Shown: positions 871 through 17,587 of the stretch, in pieces
Layout of the letters: every line of letters begins with the position of its first letter
Numbering within the stretch: position 1 is the stretch's first letter
Origin: a virus
Taxonomy: Duplodnaviria > Heunggongvirae > Uroviricota > Caudoviricetes
Direction: 5' to 3' (one strand)
IMG/VR virus record: IMGVR_UViG_2541047903_000005
Length of the DNA: 20,599 nt
Notes under the pieces: generated by a model
What the model was told of the DNA's origin: nothing
Seen by the model: the letters and a program-made list of their open reading frames with translations, nothing else
The model's database searches: none
Made by a program: the position numbers and the translations under genes

Positions 871-1218
871 ATGGTAACGAAAACCATCACTGAACAGCGT
901 GCGGAAGTACGTATTTTTGCCGGTAATGATCCGGCTCACACCGCCACAGGCAGCAGCGGGATTTCCTCGGCAACACCGGCACTGACACCCCTGATGCTGG
1001 ATGGGGCCACCGGGAAACTGGTGGTCTGGGACGGACAGAAAGCCGGTAGTGCGGTTGGCATACTGGTACTGCCGCTTGAAGGCACAGAGGCGGTGCTGAC
1101 GTATTACAAGTCGGGGACCTTTGCGACGGAGGCAATCCGCTGGCCTGAAAGTGTGGATGAACACAAAAAGGCCAACGCCTTTACCGGCAGTGCCCTGAGT
1201 CACGCGGCGCTGCCGTAA
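871..1218 (+). CDS. D: Head decoration protein D
   Basis: 115 aa; motifs NDPAHTAT, TPLMLD, KSGTF match recalled lambda gpD; sits between C/Nu3 and E. Confidence 0.9.
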   Translation: MVTKTITEQRAEVRIFAGNDPAHTATGSSGISSATPALTPLMLDGATGKLVVWDGQKAGSAVGILVLPLEGTEAVLTYYKSGTFATEAIRWPESVDEHKKANAFTGSALSHAALP

Positions 1219-4033: not shown

Positions 4034-4780
4034 ATGGCAACACCAAATCCCCTGGAGCCGGTAAAAGGTGCCGGTACCACTCTGTGGGTTTACAACGGCA
4101 AGGCTGATGCTTATGCAAACCCGTTGTCAGACGATGACTGGCAGCGACTGGCTAAGGTGAAGGATCTGACGCCGGGCGAGATGACGGCTGAATCCTACGA
4201 TGATAACTACCTGGATGATGAAGACGCGGACTGGAGCGCGACCGGGCAGGGGCAGAAATCTGCAGGTGATACCAGTTTTACGCTAGCCTGGAAACCGGGA
4301 GAGGAAGGCCAGAAAGGGCTTATAGGCTGGTTTGAAAGCGGCGATGTCCGGGCCTATAAAATCCGTTTTCCGAATGGCACGGTGGATGTGTTTCGTGGCT
4401 GGGTCAGCAGTATCGGTAAGGCCGTGACGGCGAAAGAAGTGATCACCCGCACGGTGAAAGTCACTAACGTGGGTAAACCTTCTGTAGCGGAAGAACGCAG
4501 CAAAATTACGCCGGTCACTGCGATTAAGGTAACGCCGACAGGTACGGTTGAAAAAGGGAAAACAACCACCCTGACCGTTACTGTGGAACCGGAAAATGCA
4601 ACGGATAAGACATTCAGGGCGATTTCCGCCGATCCATCAAAAGCCACCATTAGCGTGAAAGATATGACGATTACTGTGACGGGGGTTAAGGATGGAAAAG
4701 TCAGCATCCCTGTGATTTCCGGTAATGGTCAGTTTGCTGCGGTGGCTGAAATTACCGTTAATAATGTGCCGGGTGGCTAA
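4034..4780 (+). CDS. V: Major tail tube protein V with C-terminal Ig-like domain
   Basis: [51 protein letters not shown] match recalled lambda gpV; C-terminal ~90 aa is Thr/Val-rich and Ig-like (Big_2-type). Confidence 0.95.
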
Positions 4781-9990: not shown

Positions 9991-10568
9991 ACACGGCAGC
10001 GGAAGCCATTCGCGCCCTGTCGATGCAGATGCCGGGCTTTCGCCGTCAGATGAACGAAGGCTGGTACCAGATACGTATTGCCGGTGATGACACGGCACCG
10101 GAGGCGGTGTACGCCCGTCTTCACGAACAGCTGGGTGAGGGAACGGTCATCCACATTGTGCCGCGACTGGCCGGGGCCGGAAAGGGTGGACTGCAGATTG
10201 TGCTGGGGGCGGCAGCCATCGTGGGCTCTTTCTTCACGGCCGGTGCCTCGATGGCGTTATGGGGTACAGCCCTGAGTGCCGGCGGTTTTTCTGCCACCAC
10301 GATGCTGTTTTCACTGGGGGCCAGCATGATACTGGGCGGTGTGGCCCAGATGCTGGCCCCGAAGGCAAAAACACCGGATTACCGCGCAACGGATAACGGC
10401 AGACAGAACACGTACTTTTCCTCACTGGATAACATGATTGCCCAGGGGAACCCGATGCCGGTGCCTTACGGGGAAATGCTGGTTGGCTCCCGCCGTATAT
10501 CCCAGGACATCAGCACCCGTGATGAAGGCGGGGGCGGAAAGGTCGTGGTTATCGGGCGGCAGGGGTAA
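9888..10568 (+). CDS. I: Tail assembly protein I
   Basis: ICLYGDLQRFGRR, IVLGAAAI.GSFFTAGA, QNTYFSSLDNM.AQGN match recalled lambda gpI; overlaps the 3' end of K as in lambda; Gly/Ala-rich hydrophobic C-terminal half. Confidence 0.9.
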   Translation: MATTNAFSLASPPLARIRLYGDLQRFGRRLSLYVNTAAEAIRALSMQMPGFRRQMNEGWYQIRIAGDDTAPEAVYARLHEQLGEGTVIHIVPRLAGAGKGGLQIVLGAAAIVGSFFTAGASMALWGTALSAGGFSATTMLFSLGASMILGGVAQMLAPKAKTPDYRATDNGRQNTYFSSLDNMIAQGNPMPVPYGEMLVGSRRISQDISTRDEGGGGKVVVIGRQG

Positions 10569-10613
10569 AAAGAATAAAAAAATCCCGCAGTGATCGCGGA
10601 CAGGAACTGCGGG
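10569..10613 (-). terminator. Intrinsic terminator for the minus strand, immediately after the I stop codon
   Basis: On the minus strand an 8-bp stem (CCCGCAGT/ACTGCGGG, + coordinates 10584-10591 and 10606-10613) is followed by ATTTTTTTATTCTTTTT; the 14-nt loop is long but the T-tract is strong. Confidence 0.45.
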
Positions 10614-10672
10614 AGAGTTACGAAGATTAAGTGTAAGGAATTATTCTTATATCACGACAAAAAAATTAACGC
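10576..10672 (-). ncRNA. Candidate ~95-nt small RNA transcribed antisense to the tail operon, in the I-J spacer
   Basis: Bounded by a sigma70-like promoter (10679-10706, minus) and the minus-strand terminator (10569-10613); no ATG-initiated ORF on the minus strand in this interval; AT-rich. Boundaries are approximate and the call is a hypothesis from sequence only. Confidence 0.3.
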
Positions 10673-10678
10673 AGAGAA

Positions 10679-10706
10679 ATTATACGCGCCACAGTCAGTT
10701 TGTGAA
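10679..10706 (-). promoter_or_regulatory. Sigma70-like promoter on the minus strand: -35 TTCACA, 16-bp spacer, -10 TATAAT
   Basis: Minus strand reads TTCACAaactgactgtggcgcgTATAAT; + coordinates -10 = 10679-10684, -35 = 10701-10706; perfect -10 hexamer and 5/6 -35 match. Confidence 0.4.
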
Positions 10707-10778
10707 AATGTGAAGATATTCAGAATTTTTATGCCATTACCGGTTTTAACCAACAGGATTATCGGTGGGCATGAAAGA

Positions 10779-10814
10779 AAACCCCGGTATCTGCTGATAC
10801 CGGGGTTTCTCTTT
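10779..10814. terminator. Strong hairpin with U-tracts on both sides (bidirectional terminator-like) upstream of J
   Basis: AAACCCCGGTAT-ctgctg-ATACCGGGGTTT, a perfect 9 to 12-bp stem with 6-nt loop, followed by TTTCTCTTT on + and preceded by GAAAGAAA (T-run on the minus strand). Confidence 0.5.
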
Positions 10815-10911
10815 AGCATGGCAGAAATGTGTTTCATGCTTTTCGGGCGAAGGATATCCGACTTCTGTACGGAATGGCAAGTGGCGGTTAATTTATTCAG
10901 GGGAAGGCTGT

Positions 10912-13900
10912 ATGGGAAAAGGTGGCGGTAAGGCACACACGCCTCGTGAGGCGAAGGATAATCTCAAATCCACGCAGATGATGAGTGTGATTGATGCGAT
11001 TGGTGAGGGACCGATAGAAGGTCCGGTGAAGGGACTGCAGAGTATTCTGGTGAACAAAACCCCGCTGACGGACACGGACGGTAATCCCGTGATACACGGT
11101 GTGACTGCGGTCTGGCGTGCCGGGGAGCAGGAGCAGACACCACCGGAAGGCTTTGAGTCCTCCGGAGCTGAAACCGGACTGGGCGTGGAAGTGACGAAGG
11201 CAAAACCGGTGACGCGCACCATTACGTCCGCGAACATTGACCGCCTGCGGGTTACCTTCGGGGTGCAGTCACTGGTGCAGACCACGTCAAAGGGCGACCG
11301 TAATCCTTCCTCTGTCCGGATTCTGATTCAGTTACAGCGTAATGGCCGCTGGGTGACGGAAAAGGATGTCACCATTAACGGCAAGACCACCTCGCAGTTC
11401 CTGGCCTCGGTGATTCTGGATAATCTGCCTCCCCGGCCCTTTAACATCCGGATGGTCAGGGAGACGGCGGACAGCACCACGGACCAGCTGCAGAATAAGA
11501 CGCTGTGGTCGTCATACACCGAAATCATCGATGTGAAACAGTGCTACCCGAACACGGCCATTGTGGGGCTGCAGGTGGATGCGGAGCAGTTCGGCGGCCA
11601 GCAGATGACGGTGAACTACCATATCCGCGGTCGCATCATCCAGGTGCCGTCAAACTATGACCCGGAAAAACGCACGTACAGTGGTATCTGGGACGGCAGC
11701 CTGAAACCGGCATACAGCAACAACCCGGCCTGGTGTCTGTGGGACATGCTGACTCACCCGCGCTACGGCATGGGAAAACGTCTGGGGGCGGCGGATGTGG
11801 ACAAGTGGGCGCTGTATGCCATCGGGCAGTACTGCGACCAGACGGTCCCGGATGGTTTCGGGGGGACCGAGCCGCGGATGACCTTTAATGCGTACCTGGC
11901 ACAACAGCGTAAGGCGTGGGACGTTCTCAGTGATTTCTGCTCTGCGATGCGCTGTATGCCGGTATGGAACGGCCAGACGCTGACGTTCGTTCAGGACCGT
12001 CCGTCGGATGTGGTGTGGCCGTACACCAACAGCGATGTGGTGGTGGATGATAACGGCGTGGGTTTCCGCTACAGCTTCAGTGCCCTGAAGGACCGGCACA
12101 CGGCAGTGGAGGTGAATTACACCGACCCGCAGAACGGCTGGCAGACCTCCACGGAACTGGTGGAAGACCCGGAAGCCATACTGCGCTACGGACGCAACCT
12201 GCTGAAGATGGACGCGTTCGGCTGTACCAGCCGCGGTCAGGCCCACCGTGCCGGGCTGTGGGTGATAAAGACCGAACTGCTGGAAACGCAGACGGTGGAT
12301 TTCACGCTCGGGTCACAGGGGCTGCGTCACACACCCGGTGACATCATTGAAATCTGTGATAACGACTATGCCGGGACCATGACCGGCGGACGTGTCCTGT
12401 CCATCGATGCCGCCAGCCGTACCCTGACGCTGGACCGGGAGGTGACACTGCCGGAGACCGGCACGGCCACTGTTAATCTGATTAACGGCAGCGGTAAGCC
12501 GGCGAGCGTGGCCATCACCGCACACCCCGCGCCTGACCGGATACAGGTCAGCACCCTGCCGGATGGTGTGGAGACATACGGTGTGTGGGGACTCTCCCTG
12601 CCGTCACTGCGTCGTCGCCTGTTCCGCTGTGTCTCCATCCGGGAAAACACGGACGGCACCTTTGCCATCACGGCGGTGCAGCACGTACCTGAAAAAGAAG
12701 CCATCGTGGATAACGGGGCCCGCTTTGAGCCGCAGTCAGGCACCCTGAACAGCGTTATCCCACCGGCAGTGCAGCACCTGACGGTGGAGGTGAGCGCAGC
12801 TGACGGTCAGTATCTGGCACAGGCGAAATGGGACACGCCGCGGGTGGTGAAGGGTGTGCGCTTCAGTCTGCGTCTGACCAGCGGAAGCGGAGAAGACAGC
12901 CGTCTGGTGAGCACCGCCATCACCGCAGACACGGAGCACCGTTTCAGTGGTCTGCCGCTGGGGGAATACACCCTGACGGTGCGGGCCATTAACAGCTACG
13001 GCCAGCAGGGCGAACCTGCGACCACCACCTTCCGGATTAACGCGCCTGCAAAACCCGCCACCATTGAGCTGACGCCGGGGTATTTTCAGATAACGGCGGT
13101 ACCGGTGCTGGCGGTGTATGACCCGACGGTGCAGTTTGAGTTCTGGTTTTCGGAAAAACGCATCACGAACACGGCACAGGTGGAAAAATCTGCCCGTTAT
13201 CTGGGGACCGGCAGTCAGTGGACTGTCCAGGGCGATCGGATTAAGCCGGGGATGGATTTCTGGTTTTATGTGCGCAGTGTCAACCTGGTGGGCAAGTCTG
13301 CATTTGTGGAAGCCAGCGGGCAGGCCAGCAATGATGCAAAAGGGTATCTGGAATTTTTCCGTGGTCTGATAGATGAGACGCTGCTGGGGCAGGCACTGAA
13401 AAAGCGCATTGATGCGTCAGCCCTGCGATCGGATGTCACTCAACTGGAAGAGAATATCGGACAACTGGAAGAAGACATCCGTCAGCGGATGGACACGGAT
13501 ATTGCGGAAGTGACCCGGAAAATCGGGGAGGCGGAAAACAGCCTCACGCAGCTGGTTGCGAAAAAGAATGAGGATCAGACGCTGGCCATCGCGCAGGTGA
13601 GTCAGAAAGTGGACCGTGTCAGCAGTGAAATCTCACAGACGGTCAGTCAGAGCAGTGAGGAAAATACCCGACAGATAGCACAGGTCCGTCAGTACGTGGA
13701 CAAAAAGCAAAGTGAAATCAAGCAGACAGTCAGCCAGGGCCAGTCAGAAAACGCCCGACAGATAGCACAGGTCCGCCAGTACGTGGATAAAAAAGGGAGT
13801 GAAATTACCTCGACCACGGATAAAAAGCTGGGTGACCAGGCCGTGACCATACAGCAAATCCAGCGGGTTCAGTCAGACACGCGCAATGAGCTGAATGCCA

Positions 13901-14730: not shown

Positions 14731-14757
14731 GGGCGCCAGAAATGGCGCCTTTTTTAT
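14731..14757 (+). terminator. Intrinsic terminator downstream of J
   Basis: GGCGCC-agaaat-GGCGCC followed by TTTTTTATT, about 20 bp after the J stop. Confidence 0.6.
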
Positions 14758-14779: not shown

Positions 14780-15379
14780 ATGCGTAAATTATGTGCTGTT
14801 ATTCTGTCCGCAGTAGTCTGGCTGGTTGCCGCTGGTACGCCAGCGAGCGCAGCAGAGCATCAGTCCACACTAAGCGCCGGGTATCTTCAGACCCACACTG
14901 ATATGCCAGGAAGCGATAATCTGAACGGGATTAACGTGAAATACCGTTATGAATTTACGGACACGCTGGGGCTGATTACGTCTTTCAGTTATGCCGACGC
15001 AGAAGATGAACAAAAAACGCATTACAGCGATACCCGCTGGCATGAAGATTCCGTGCGTAACCGCTGGTTCAGCGTAATGGCGGGGCCGTCTGTGCGCGTG
15101 AATGAATGGTTCAGCGCGTATGCGATGGCGGGTGTGGCTTACAGCCGTGTGTCGACTTTCTCCGGGGATTATCTCCGCGTAACTGACAACAAGGGGAAAA
15201 CGCACGACGTGCTGACCGGAAGTGATGACGGTCGCCACAGCAATACCTCTCTGGCGTGGGGGGCTGGCGTGCAGTTTAACCCGACCGAATCCGTGACCAT
15301 TGACCTTGCTTATGAAGGTTCCGGTAGTGGCGACTGGCGAACGGATGCATTTATTGTTGGTATCGGATACCGTTTCTGA
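14780..15379 (+). CDS. lom: Outer membrane protein Lom (Ail/Lom/OmpX-family beta-barrel), prophage moron
   Basis: 199 aa; signal-peptide-like N-terminus MRKLCAVILSAVVWLVAAGTPASA; matches recalled lambda Lom (SAGYL, INVKYRYEFTDTLG, WGAGVQFNPTESV, ending GYRF); lies between two terminators. Confidence 0.9.
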   Translation: MRKLCAVILSAVVWLVAAGTPASAAEHQSTLSAGYLQTHTDMPGSDNLNGINVKYRYEFTDTLGLITSFSYADAEDEQKTHYSDTRWHEDSVRNRWFSVMAGPSVRVNEWFSAYAMAGVAYSRVSTFSGDYLRVTDNKGKTHDVLTGSDDGRHSNTSLAWGAGVQFNPTESVTIDLAYEGSGSGDWRTDAFIVGIGYRF

Positions 15380-15483
15380 CAACAGACGCCGATTTATCTT
15401 CTGTAAATATTGTTATGATACGCAGGTTCATCCGCCTTATGGGGTGAACTGCGTTTGAGGAAACGTAAAGTTACACTGTCCTG

Positions 15484-15518
15484 AAGCCCGTGGCGTCACT
15501 GCTGCGGGCTTTTTTTAT
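15484..15518 (+). terminator. Intrinsic terminator downstream of lom
   Basis: AAGCCCG-(14-nt loop)-CGGGCTT followed by TTTTTTATT. Confidence 0.55.
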
Positions 15519-16665
15519 TGGTGGAAAAGTATGACAGTAAAAATTTCTGGCGTGCTTAAAGATGGCACAGGAAAACCAGTACAGAACTGCACCATTGTGC
15601 TGAAGGCCAGACGGACCAGCAGCACGGTGGTGGTGAACACGGTGGCCTCTGAAAATCCGGATGAAGCCGGGCGTTACAGCATGGATGTTGAGTATGGCCA
15701 GTACAGCGTCACCCTGCTGGTTGAAGGTTTTCCACCTTCACATGCCGGGACCATTACCGTCTATGAAGGTTCCAGACCAGGTACGCTGAATGATTTTCTC
15801 GGTGCCATGACGGAGGATGATGCCCGTCCGGAGGCACTGCGCCGTTTTGAGCTGATGGTGAATGAAGCGGCACGTCATGCCGGAGCGTCATCACAGAGTG
15901 CAGCGGCGGCAAAGAAATCCGAAACGGCAGCAGCCTCATCGAAGAATGCAGCGAAAACCTCAGAAACGAATGCAGCTAACAGCGCACAAGCGGCAGCGGC
16001 CTCGCAGACTGCATCGGCAAACTCCGCGACAGCAGCCAAAAAATCAGAAACCAACGCGAAAAATAGCGAGACAGCCACAAAGGCCAGCGAAAAAAACGCA
16101 AAATCCAGCCAGACGGCAGCGAAAACCAGTGAGACGAATGCCAAAGACAGTGAAGCCAACGCAAAGGTGAGCGAAACAGCGGCGGCGAACTCGGCGAAAG
16201 CATCGGCAGCAAGCCAGACGGCAGCAAAAGCAAGTGAAGATGCTGCCAGAGAATACGCAAACCAGACAGCAGAGCCGTACAGATATGTTTTACAGCCGCT
16301 GCCGGATGTGTGGATACCCTTTAATGATTCGCTGGATATGATTACGGGCTATTCTCCGGGTTATAAAAAAGTGAAGATTGGTGATAATGTGGTTCAGGTT
16401 GCCAGTGATAAACAGGTTAATTTCAGTCGCGCATCAACGGCAACATATATCAACAAATCTGGCGAACTGAAAACGGCGGAAATTAATGAGCCACGATTTG
16501 AGTGTGATGGCCTGCTTATTGAGGGGCAAAGAACGAACTTCTTCCCGAACAGTACAGACCCTTCGAAGTGGAATAAGTCAACTTCACTGGACGTTACAGA
16601 AACAGGCACAGATAGTTTCGGGTTTAATTATGGCCGGTTTGTCGTACAGGATTCGATTGTTGGTA

Positions 16666-16670
16666 CAAGT
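16666..16670. repeat. Target-site duplication CAAGT (left copy) flanking IS2
   Basis: CAAGT directly abuts the IS2 end at 16671 and recurs at 18002-18006 next to the other end. Confidence 0.8.
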
Positions 16671-16681
16671 TGGATTTGCCC

Positions 16682-17587
16682 CTATATTTCCAGACACCTG
16701 TTATCACTTAACCCATCACTGGCCCACTGCCGCAGATATTCCCGTGGCGAGCGATAACCCAGCGCACTATGCGGATGCCATTCGTTATAATGCTCGAACG
16801 CCTCTGCAAGGTTCTTTGCTGCCGTTAACCCGTCTGGTTTGGGCATGATACTTATGTAGTCACGCTTTATCGTTTTCACGAAGCTCTCTGCTATTCCGTT
16901 ACTCTCCGGACTCCGCACTGCCGTGTTCTTCGGTTCAAGTCCCAACATCCTGGCGAACTGACGTGTTTCATTCGCCCGGTAGCATGAACCATTATCCGTC
17001 AGCCACTCCACTGGAGACGCCGGAAGCTCGCTGCCAAAGCGGCGTTCCACTGCTCCCAGCATGACGTCCTGTACTGTTTCACTGTCGAAGCCACCCGTTG
17101 TGACCGCCCAGTGCAGTGCCTCACGGTCACAGCAGTCCAGCGCGAACGTGACCCGCAGTTTTTCTCCGTTATCACAGCGGAACTCAAACCCGTCAGAGCA
17201 CCATCGCTGATTACTTTCTTTCACAGCCACTCTGCCGGTATGTGCCCGTTTCGATGGCGGTACAGCGGGTTTTCGCTCAAGCAACAGCGCATTCTGGCGC
17301 ATGATCCGGTAAACACGTTTGGCATTGATCGCAGGCATACCATCAAGTTCTGTTTGTCTGCGAAGCAGCGCCCATACCCGACGATAACCATATGTGGGTA
17401 GCTCTCCGATAACATGGTGTATACGGCGAAGCACATCCGTATCATCCGTGTGACGGCTGCGGCGGCCGTCCTTCCAGTCATCGGCTCGTCTGAGAATGAC
17501 GTGCAACTGCGCACGCGACACCCGGAGACAACGGCTGACGAAGCTTACTCCCCATCCCCGGGCAATAAGGGCGCGTGCGCTATCCAC
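16682..17587 (-). CDS. insD: IS2 transposase OrfB (InsD), DDE integrase core
   Basis: 301-aa ORF recognised as IS3-family transposase orfB; normally expressed as an InsCD fusion by -1 frameshift. Confidence 0.9.

Follow-up and report, generated by a model that had tools for sequence, protein, structure and literature searches.

The closest described systems to the locus analysed here are two sets of small RNAs (sRNAs) from Escherichia coli prophages, one found in EPEC and one in EHEC. PasB of EPEC O127:H6 E2348/69 is an 83-nt RNA by Northern blot, encoded on the minus strand (NC_011601.1, 1466343 to 1466261; Pearl Mizrahi et al. 2021, PMC8550237, Table S6) in the interval between E2348C_1436 and E2348C_1437 of prophage PP6 (PMC8550237). 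Its log2 fold changes between an hfq deletion and the wild type are -6.8 and -2.4, the first of which is a 100-fold fall, and it has 37 RIL-seq interactions (PMC8550237). PasB baseMean values in RNA-seq (482 and 1082) are 30 to 200 times higher than those of the flanking I (4.8) and J (15) genes (PMC8550237). Expression so far above I and J is what an independently transcribed moron would show. A 2026 survey of the Pas RNAs (Zhu, Shabalina, Storz; bioRxiv 10.64898/2026.05.13.724894), which searched Escherichia by blastn with a word size of 28 and a query coverage above 75%, describes PasB variants that differ by a few nucleotides and places the PasB seed just 5' of the terminator.

The second set, EcOnc22, EcOnc23 and EcOnc24 of EHEC Sakai, comes from prophages Sp15 (Stx1), Sp14 and Sp11, respectively (Tree et al. 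2014, PMC4104026 Table S2). These RNAs were seen as Hfq-CRAC peaks, run at about 85 nt on Northern blots and are destabilised without Hfq (PMC4104026). We found no link between PasB and EcOnc22 in the literature, including the PasB papers and a 2021 review; the former name no counterpart of PasB in EHEC. Here we analyse a gene at the junction of tail genes I and J in a stretch of 20,599 nucleotides (the window; IMG/VR record IMGVR_UViG_2541047903_000005, Caudoviricetes), and we compare it with both sets.

Results

A long, A/T-rich gap between I and J

The window carries, on its plus strand, the late operon of a lambda-like prophage in the order prohead protease, major capsid gene, tape measure, M, L, K, I, J, Lom and tail-fibre N-terminal gene. 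The I-like gene (Pfam Lambda_tail_I) ends with a TAA stop at 10566-10568 and J starts with the ATG at 10912, leaving a gap of 343 bp (10569-10911), compared with 60 bp in lambda (15445-15504). The GC content of the gap is 35-42%, as against 55-66% in its flanks. The initial annotation of this DNA had described an A/T-rich spacer of this length and had put the lambda spacer at about 60 bp, and on all of these points it was right. All 343 bp are matched at 100% identity in CFT073, and the RefSeq annotation of the gap, for example in that genome, is empty.

Further downstream, the Lom gene (14780-15379) is bracketed by strong plus-strand terminator-like hairpins at 14731-14750 and 15483-15512, which is the classic lom moron arrangement. 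Right after the tail-fibre N-terminal gene (15531-16757), the minus strand encodes an IS-type transposase (16682-17587; Pfam rve, HTH_21). Disruption of the side tail fibre gene is likely, and this may be a defective prophage.

An antisense promoter and terminator around an AUG-free RNA

Hexamer pairs were scored at two spacings throughout the window. The minus-strand sigma-70 promoter in the left part of the gap (Table 1) scored 11/12 and is the best site in the window; it is also the sole pair to reach at least 10/12 across 20 kb on both strands, all others standing at 9/12. The A/T-rich block immediately 5' of its -35 hexamer is possibly an UP element or a regulator site. Transcription usually starts about 7 nt after a -10 hexamer, and the 97 nt from the G at that distance (10672) to 10576 contain no AUG. 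A terminator scan reported a stem at 10600..10584 followed by ATTTTTTT, whereas folding and comparison of alleles gave CCCGCAG/CUGCGGG as the conserved stem. The terminator ends 8 nt from the I stop. These results bear out what the initial annotation had read from the minus strand, namely a near-consensus sigma-70 promoter, about 95 nt without ATG, and a stem-loop with a T-tract right after the I stop.

Table 1. Features of the I-J gap and of related spacers. Positions are those of the window unless a locus is named.
Feature	Position	Strand	Details
sigma-70 promoter	10679..10706	-	-35 TTCACA 10706..10701, 16-nt spacer, -10 TATAAT 10684..10679
A/T-rich block immediately 5' of the -35	10707..10733	-	nearly invariant in 55 unique alleles
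Predicted primary transcript, about 97 nt	10576..10672	-	start at G 10672, inferred 7 nt past the -10
Conserved single-stranded motifs	10622..10639	-	UCCUUA 10639..10634, AAUCUUC 10628..10622
Intrinsic terminator	10576..10613	-	CCCGCAG 10613..10607, 16-nt loop, CUGCGGG 10590..10584, A, U7 10582..10576
Second non-coding module, independently assorting, nearly invariant	10740..10905	.	166 bp
10-bp G+C-rich hairpin	10778..10808	.	CCCCGGTATC-TGCT-GATACCGGGG, A run on one side, T run on the other
Pre-J hairpins of short spacer types and lambda	L004 669-692; L002 1931-1954; L155 (lambda) about 966-985	+	lambda hairpin seen by eye
Hypothetical second antisense sRNA, about 70 nt	10776..10880	-	-35 TTGCCA 10880..10875, 18 nt, -10 TATCCT 10856..10851

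The predicted RNA has both marks of an Hfq-binding module, a U tract of at least six and an unstructured A/U-rich stretch before the terminator. Two conserved motifs, UCCUUA and AAUCUUC, fall in a region that is unpaired in the consensus fold; UCCUUA is complementary to a Shine-Dalgarno core and so anti-Shine-Dalgarno-like, and both motifs are candidate seed regions, Hfq contact regions, or both. Folding of 10576-10672 on the minus strand, a check that the initial annotation had proposed, recovered the terminator hairpin, with a modest z-score of -2.1 for the whole RNA. Because the terminator is the sole conserved structure in the consensus fold of 19 alleles, where it is invariant and there is almost no covariation, structure statistics add little here. 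A fold of this kind is in keeping with an sRNA of the Hfq type whose pairing region is single-stranded.

The open reading frames in the gap look spurious

Two long ORFs span the gap, one of 113 codons on the plus strand (10590..10931) and one of 94 codons on the minus strand (10652..10936), and they would be expected if the gap were a decayed protein-coding moron whose promoter and terminator are leftovers or chance matches. Neither ORF matched Pfam, and both run through the 10-bp G+C hairpin (10782-10805). Related alleles differ by indels of 2, 3 and 5 nt that disrupt the frames, the two halves of the gap assort independently, and conservation sits on the promoter hexamers and the stem arms rather than on codons. 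Sister alleles, moreover, produce a stable small RNA. We regard a decayed gene as extremely improbable and agree with the initial annotation that the ORFs look spurious.

PasB and EcOnc22 occupy the same junction

E2348C_1436 and E2348C_1437, the genes on either side of PasB, are the I and J homologues of that prophage, and the 3' end of PasB lies 6 nt from the I stop. The window, E2348/69 and Sakai Sp15 thus agree in position: in each, the gene separates I from J and is antisense to the late operon of a lambdoid prophage. The window allele and PasB can be aligned over the promoter, the 5' box, the AAUCUUC motif and the terminator: TTCACA-16-TATAAT, the first transcribed bases, the terminator stem and U7 are the same in both, and so are the motifs UCCUU and AUCUUC. 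Nucleotides 1-20 of the 23-nt Northern probe for PasB (AATCCCGCAGTGATCGCGGAGCT; PMC8550237) equal the plus strand of the window at 10581-10600, and AAUCUUC takes the position that corresponds to the PasB seed.

The two alleles differ in the RNA body, which is 72% identical over 83 nt with a longest common run of 25 nt, and in the terminator loop, which has 16 nt in the window and 11 nt in PasB. The spacer of E2348/69 is of the short (240-bp) type and lacks the right-hand module of the window. A blastn comparison of the window with PasB gave no match at word size 28 and a match of only 25 nt (30% coverage) at word size 11, so that the allele falls outside the operational definition of PasB used in the 2026 survey. 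Judged by its sequence, it is very likely a divergent relative outside the published PasB set.

The two alleles also inform each other at the 5' end. The RNA-seq-derived end of PasB lies 22 nt past its -10 hexamer; trimming of the primary transcript would explain this distance, as would a published end that is only approximate. The position aligned with it in the window is about 10659, which would give an RNA of about 83 nt.

In Sakai Sp15, the gap between ECs_2945 (tail assembly) and ECs_2944 (host specificity; NC_002695.2, 2902691-2902930, locus L156) has a layout like that of the window. It holds GTTAATCTTCATCGTTCTCTCCC, which over its 23 nt equals the EcOnc22/23/24 probe in reverse complement, and this is followed by CCCGCAG...CTGCGGGATTTTTTT, a terminator as in the rest of the family. 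We infer that the EcOnc22 peak maps to the I-J gap of Sp15. EcOnc22 and the window allele are alike in I-J position, orientation, terminator and AAUCUUC motif, with about 73% identity between the alleles; the Sp15 promoter looks weaker than that of the window, with AATAAT as its -10 and an altered -35. PasB and EcOnc22/23/24 would accordingly be members of one family, a link that we draw here from the alignments.

The peak coordinates published for EcOnc22 in 2014 have to be raised by about 110 nt to reach the matching sequence in the Sakai record as it now stands, which is 5,498,578 bp long. This offset fits the 128-bp growth of the record from its old length of 5,498,450 bp. The old EcOnc coordinates need to be re-mapped before use.

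The initial annotation had proposed an sRNA moron transcribed on its own, in the direction opposite to the late operon, and this is supported by analogy, homologous alleles at the same position having been found by experiment to be just that. The novelty that it implied is lost, as the PasB and EcOnc22 alleles have already been characterised. Its suggestion to search Rfam and prophage genomes was fruitful for the genomes, where the family is found at thousands of places (see below), and not for Rfam. A scan of the whole window against Rfam 15 at gathering thresholds returned no family, and in a permissive scan of 10400-11100 the best sub-threshold scores were 15-20 bits, compared with thresholds of 39-315. 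An identity with AgvB/AsxR (RF02702, RF02703) was rejected, there being no sequence match, and no covariance-model match at the gathering score or at an E-value of 10 or below. A full-text literature search for diagnostic sequence strings likewise gave no match.

A fixed scaffold with a variable body

To describe the family we sampled 16 E. coli loci chosen over a gradient of similarity, together with about 120 viral contigs, the latter gathered with a pattern taken from the conserved block upstream of the promoter, which gave 135 modules with 55 unique sequences. The layout of promoter, antisense RNA and terminator is present in 135 of 135. The A/T-rich upstream block, GCGUUA at the start, the U run, UCCUU and AAUCUU are fixed or nearly so, as are both terminator arms, the U tail and, in most alleles including PasB of E2348/69, the promoter hexamers. 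Among the 55 unique sequences the body from the U run to the stem is variable and mosaic; in one locus (L008), for instance, the 5' half belongs to one allele type and the 3' half to a second. Around a loop whose length ranges from 4 to 16 nt, both arms of the terminator are kept without change in 18-19 of 19 alleles. In the divergent member L040 the arms read CCCACAGT/ACTGTGGG where the others have CCCGCAG/CTGCGGG, a replacement of G-C by A-U that is compensatory.

By sensitive blastn, family members lie at 4576 places, spread over 1842 of the 5426 complete E. coli genomes, with at most 9 per genome. Among species representatives, genuine matches besides E. coli were confined to E. albertii; other pattern matches (Nostoc and others) were rejected as chance. 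Identical copies of the window allele are present in 633 complete E. coli records, among them CFT073, S88 and ATCC 25922, and the transcribed sequence of this allele is the commonest of the sample (31 of 135).

Several sampled loci depart from this picture. In a frequent allele group (L038, L041, L084 and similar IMG/VR loci) the promoter reads TTCTGT-16-TATCAT instead of TTCACA-16-TATAAT, and alleles may thus differ in promoter strength. In L018 and L076, what appears to be the end of an insertion sequence, followed by a transposase start, lies between the -35 and the -10. L018 itself is a tiny contig (546 bp) assigned to Asaia platycodi and L025 one (3408 bp) assigned to Streptomyces flavalbus; both carry E. 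coli prophage I-J sequence and are probably E. coli contamination of those assemblies. In E. coli 14EC017 (NZ_CP024134.1; L016) the sRNA body and terminator adjoin I, the promoter region is replaced, and sodC follows on the opposite strand, which looks like a rearranged prophage remnant.

A second, nearly invariant module before J

The initial annotation had taken the gap for a single 343-bp insert and had suggested comparing I-J spacers across prophages for a discrete indel. That comparison gave a different picture: because its halves assort independently, with a boundary near 10733-10740, the gap consists of two modules. Short-spacer loci and Stx phages are homologous to the gap only up to about 10732-10735. 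The right-hand module has 1694 matches, distributed over 1446 complete E. coli genomes, with no diverged copies among them; its identity reaches at least 99% in 1442 of the 1451 E. coli records. Over 47 sampled loci it is 98.2-100% identical, compared with 94.3-100% for the first 300 nt of J and 80-99% for the sRNA module.

The main feature of this module is its G+C-rich hairpin, which looks like a bidirectional terminator. It has a fold z-score of -6.8 on the minus strand and also folds on the plus strand. In long-type spacers such as that of the window it is followed by TTTCTCTTT, and the terminator scan flagged it on neither strand. Short spacer types (about 240 bp) have a different plus-strand hairpin and T run before J, which the scan did flag. 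One IMG/VR contig (L121) with a long-type spacer has a deletion of 47 bp, including the hairpin, between two AGAAA repeats.

Our preferred reading, to which we give a little less than an even chance, is that a plus-strand hairpin has long stood before J at this junction and that the sRNA gene later entered upstream of it, in the space behind the I stop. The right half would then serve the late operon on the plus strand, its hairpin and U run acting as a partial terminator that lowers J compared with the genes before it, as a block to read-through in the lysogen, or as an mRNA-stabilising or processing element. The flagged plus-strand hairpins of the short types point this way, and their stems carry a compensatory change from ACAGGCATCC/GGATGCCTGT to ACAGGCACCC/GGGTGCCTGT (T:A to C:G) whose U.G intermediates pair on the plus strand. 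Even the 60-bp gap of lambda reads CCGCC-TGCG-GGCGG-TTTTGTC, although this was seen by eye and the consensus scan flagged no hairpin there. A late role also has to be squared with Q-modified polymerase, which reads through terminators, and with the natural variant L121, which does without the hairpin; it leaves 100 invariant bases between hairpin and J (10809-10905) unexplained. No plus-strand promoter that would use the pre-J hairpin as its terminator was found at the scan threshold.

The same half could instead encode a second antisense sRNA of about 70 nt, starting at about 10844 and ending at about 10776 after the hairpin and UUUUCUUUC, which would make two tandem sRNA genes in the gap. 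A promoter-like TTGCCA-18-TATCCT with an A/T-rich stretch upstream, the strong minus-strand hairpin (z-score -6.8) with UUUUCUUUC after it, and a near-invariance above that of the adjacent coding DNA all agree with such a gene. The promoter, however, scores 9/12, a value reached by chance about 15 times per 20 kb, the invariance means that the structure has no variation behind it, and neither the EcOnc table entries checked nor a full-text literature search held a match. We think a second sRNA unlikely, and we prefer the plus-strand hairpin as an old feature of the junction. EcOnc54 (Sakai Sp6) was considered as a match for the right half and rejected; it lies in a different moron, between L and K.

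Discussion

A probable Hfq-dependent regulator

We are confident that 10569 to about 10735 of the window is an sRNA gene of the PasB/EcOnc22 family, a moron of the I-J junction, and that its product is most likely an Hfq-dependent regulator acting in trans. The anatomy of the gene, its homology, its distribution, its pattern of conservation and its maintenance by selection are established by the comparisons above. For sister alleles, transcription, size and Hfq dependence have been demonstrated (PMC8550237, PMC4104026), and by analogy with them we would expect this allele to be expressed, to have its 5' end in the range given here, to bind Hfq and to act in trans. In a lysogen, host RNA polymerase would start at the promoter at 10706..10679, reading against a silent late operon, and would stop at the CCCGCAG/CUGCGGG-U7 terminator just short of I. 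The product would be an RNA of about 83-97 nt, beginning at 10672 or trimmed to about 10659, in which Hfq would contact the U7 tail and the A/U-rich stretch that precedes the hairpin. The unstructured body could then pair in trans, in an Hfq-dependent manner, with host and prophage mRNAs. Within the window itself, a duplex scan of the sRNA against translation start regions did no better than shuffled controls. The body is mosaic between fixed elements, and different alleles therefore probably have different target sets.

As the gene is convergent with the late operon, its RNA would be complementary over its whole length to the late polycistronic mRNA at the I-J junction, and it might act mainly in cis there, silencing leaky late transcripts in the lysogen, directing RNase III to cleave between I and J, or acting against superinfecting relatives with the same junction; conversely, the late mRNA might titrate the sRNA after induction. 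The overlap of the RNA with late mRNA is confined to the intergenic part, and many co-resident prophages, at most 9 in one genome, have the module at this junction, as such a role would lead one to expect. Against it, the RNA overlaps neither the J ribosome-binding site nor coding sequence, the divergence of the body between alleles would weaken antisense action across phages, and the RIL-seq chimeras of PasB join it to many unlinked core and accessory transcripts, which is typical of an Hfq sRNA (PMC8550237). We consider a mainly cis-acting RNA improbable, and a cis role could exist beside the trans action that we favour, the two being compatible.

A broader proposal, possible but doubtful, is that the I-J junction is a two-part regulatory cassette, in which a modular sRNA scaffold is paired with the invariant 166-bp element at 10740-10905. 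In the first part, promoter, Hfq module and terminator would stay fixed while the targeting body is swapped by recombination between co-resident prophages; the second would be either an unreported second sRNA or a conserved attenuator before J. If this were true, each prophage would give its host a regulon of its own, and the PasB, EcOnc22 and CFT073-type alleles would represent three specificities out of many.

Implications for annotation

Roughly one complete E. coli genome in three has the family at least once, and O157 strains have up to nine copies. The family is common yet missing from Rfam and from RefSeq annotation, and published surveys catch only near-identical PasB alleles. The window allele occurs in many other extraintestinal isolates besides the strains named above; if its expression resembles that of its relatives, widely used model strains would contain an abundant Hfq client that is not annotated. 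With EcOnc22/23/24 and PasB joined, two literatures become one, and a fixed scaffold with a variable body offers a natural allele series for studying how acquired sRNAs gain targets. The general picture of prophage morons is unchanged by these results, which are a useful annotation rather than a surprise.

Comparison with lambda and with AgvB/AsxR

Lambda has the same genes on either side of its I-J gap and a small hairpin with a T run just before J, but its gap of 60 bp has neither a promoter nor an antisense gene. AgvB and AsxR are prophage-borne like the gene in the window; they bind Hfq and are expressed in lysogens, as the window allele would be by analogy with its sisters. They differ in site, being morons of PR', whereas the gene in the window lies in the tail operon; in length, at 51-60 nt; and in their mode of action, the sponging of core sRNAs. 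In design, with a conserved 3' part and a variable targeting part, AgvB and AsxR resemble the build of the PasB family.
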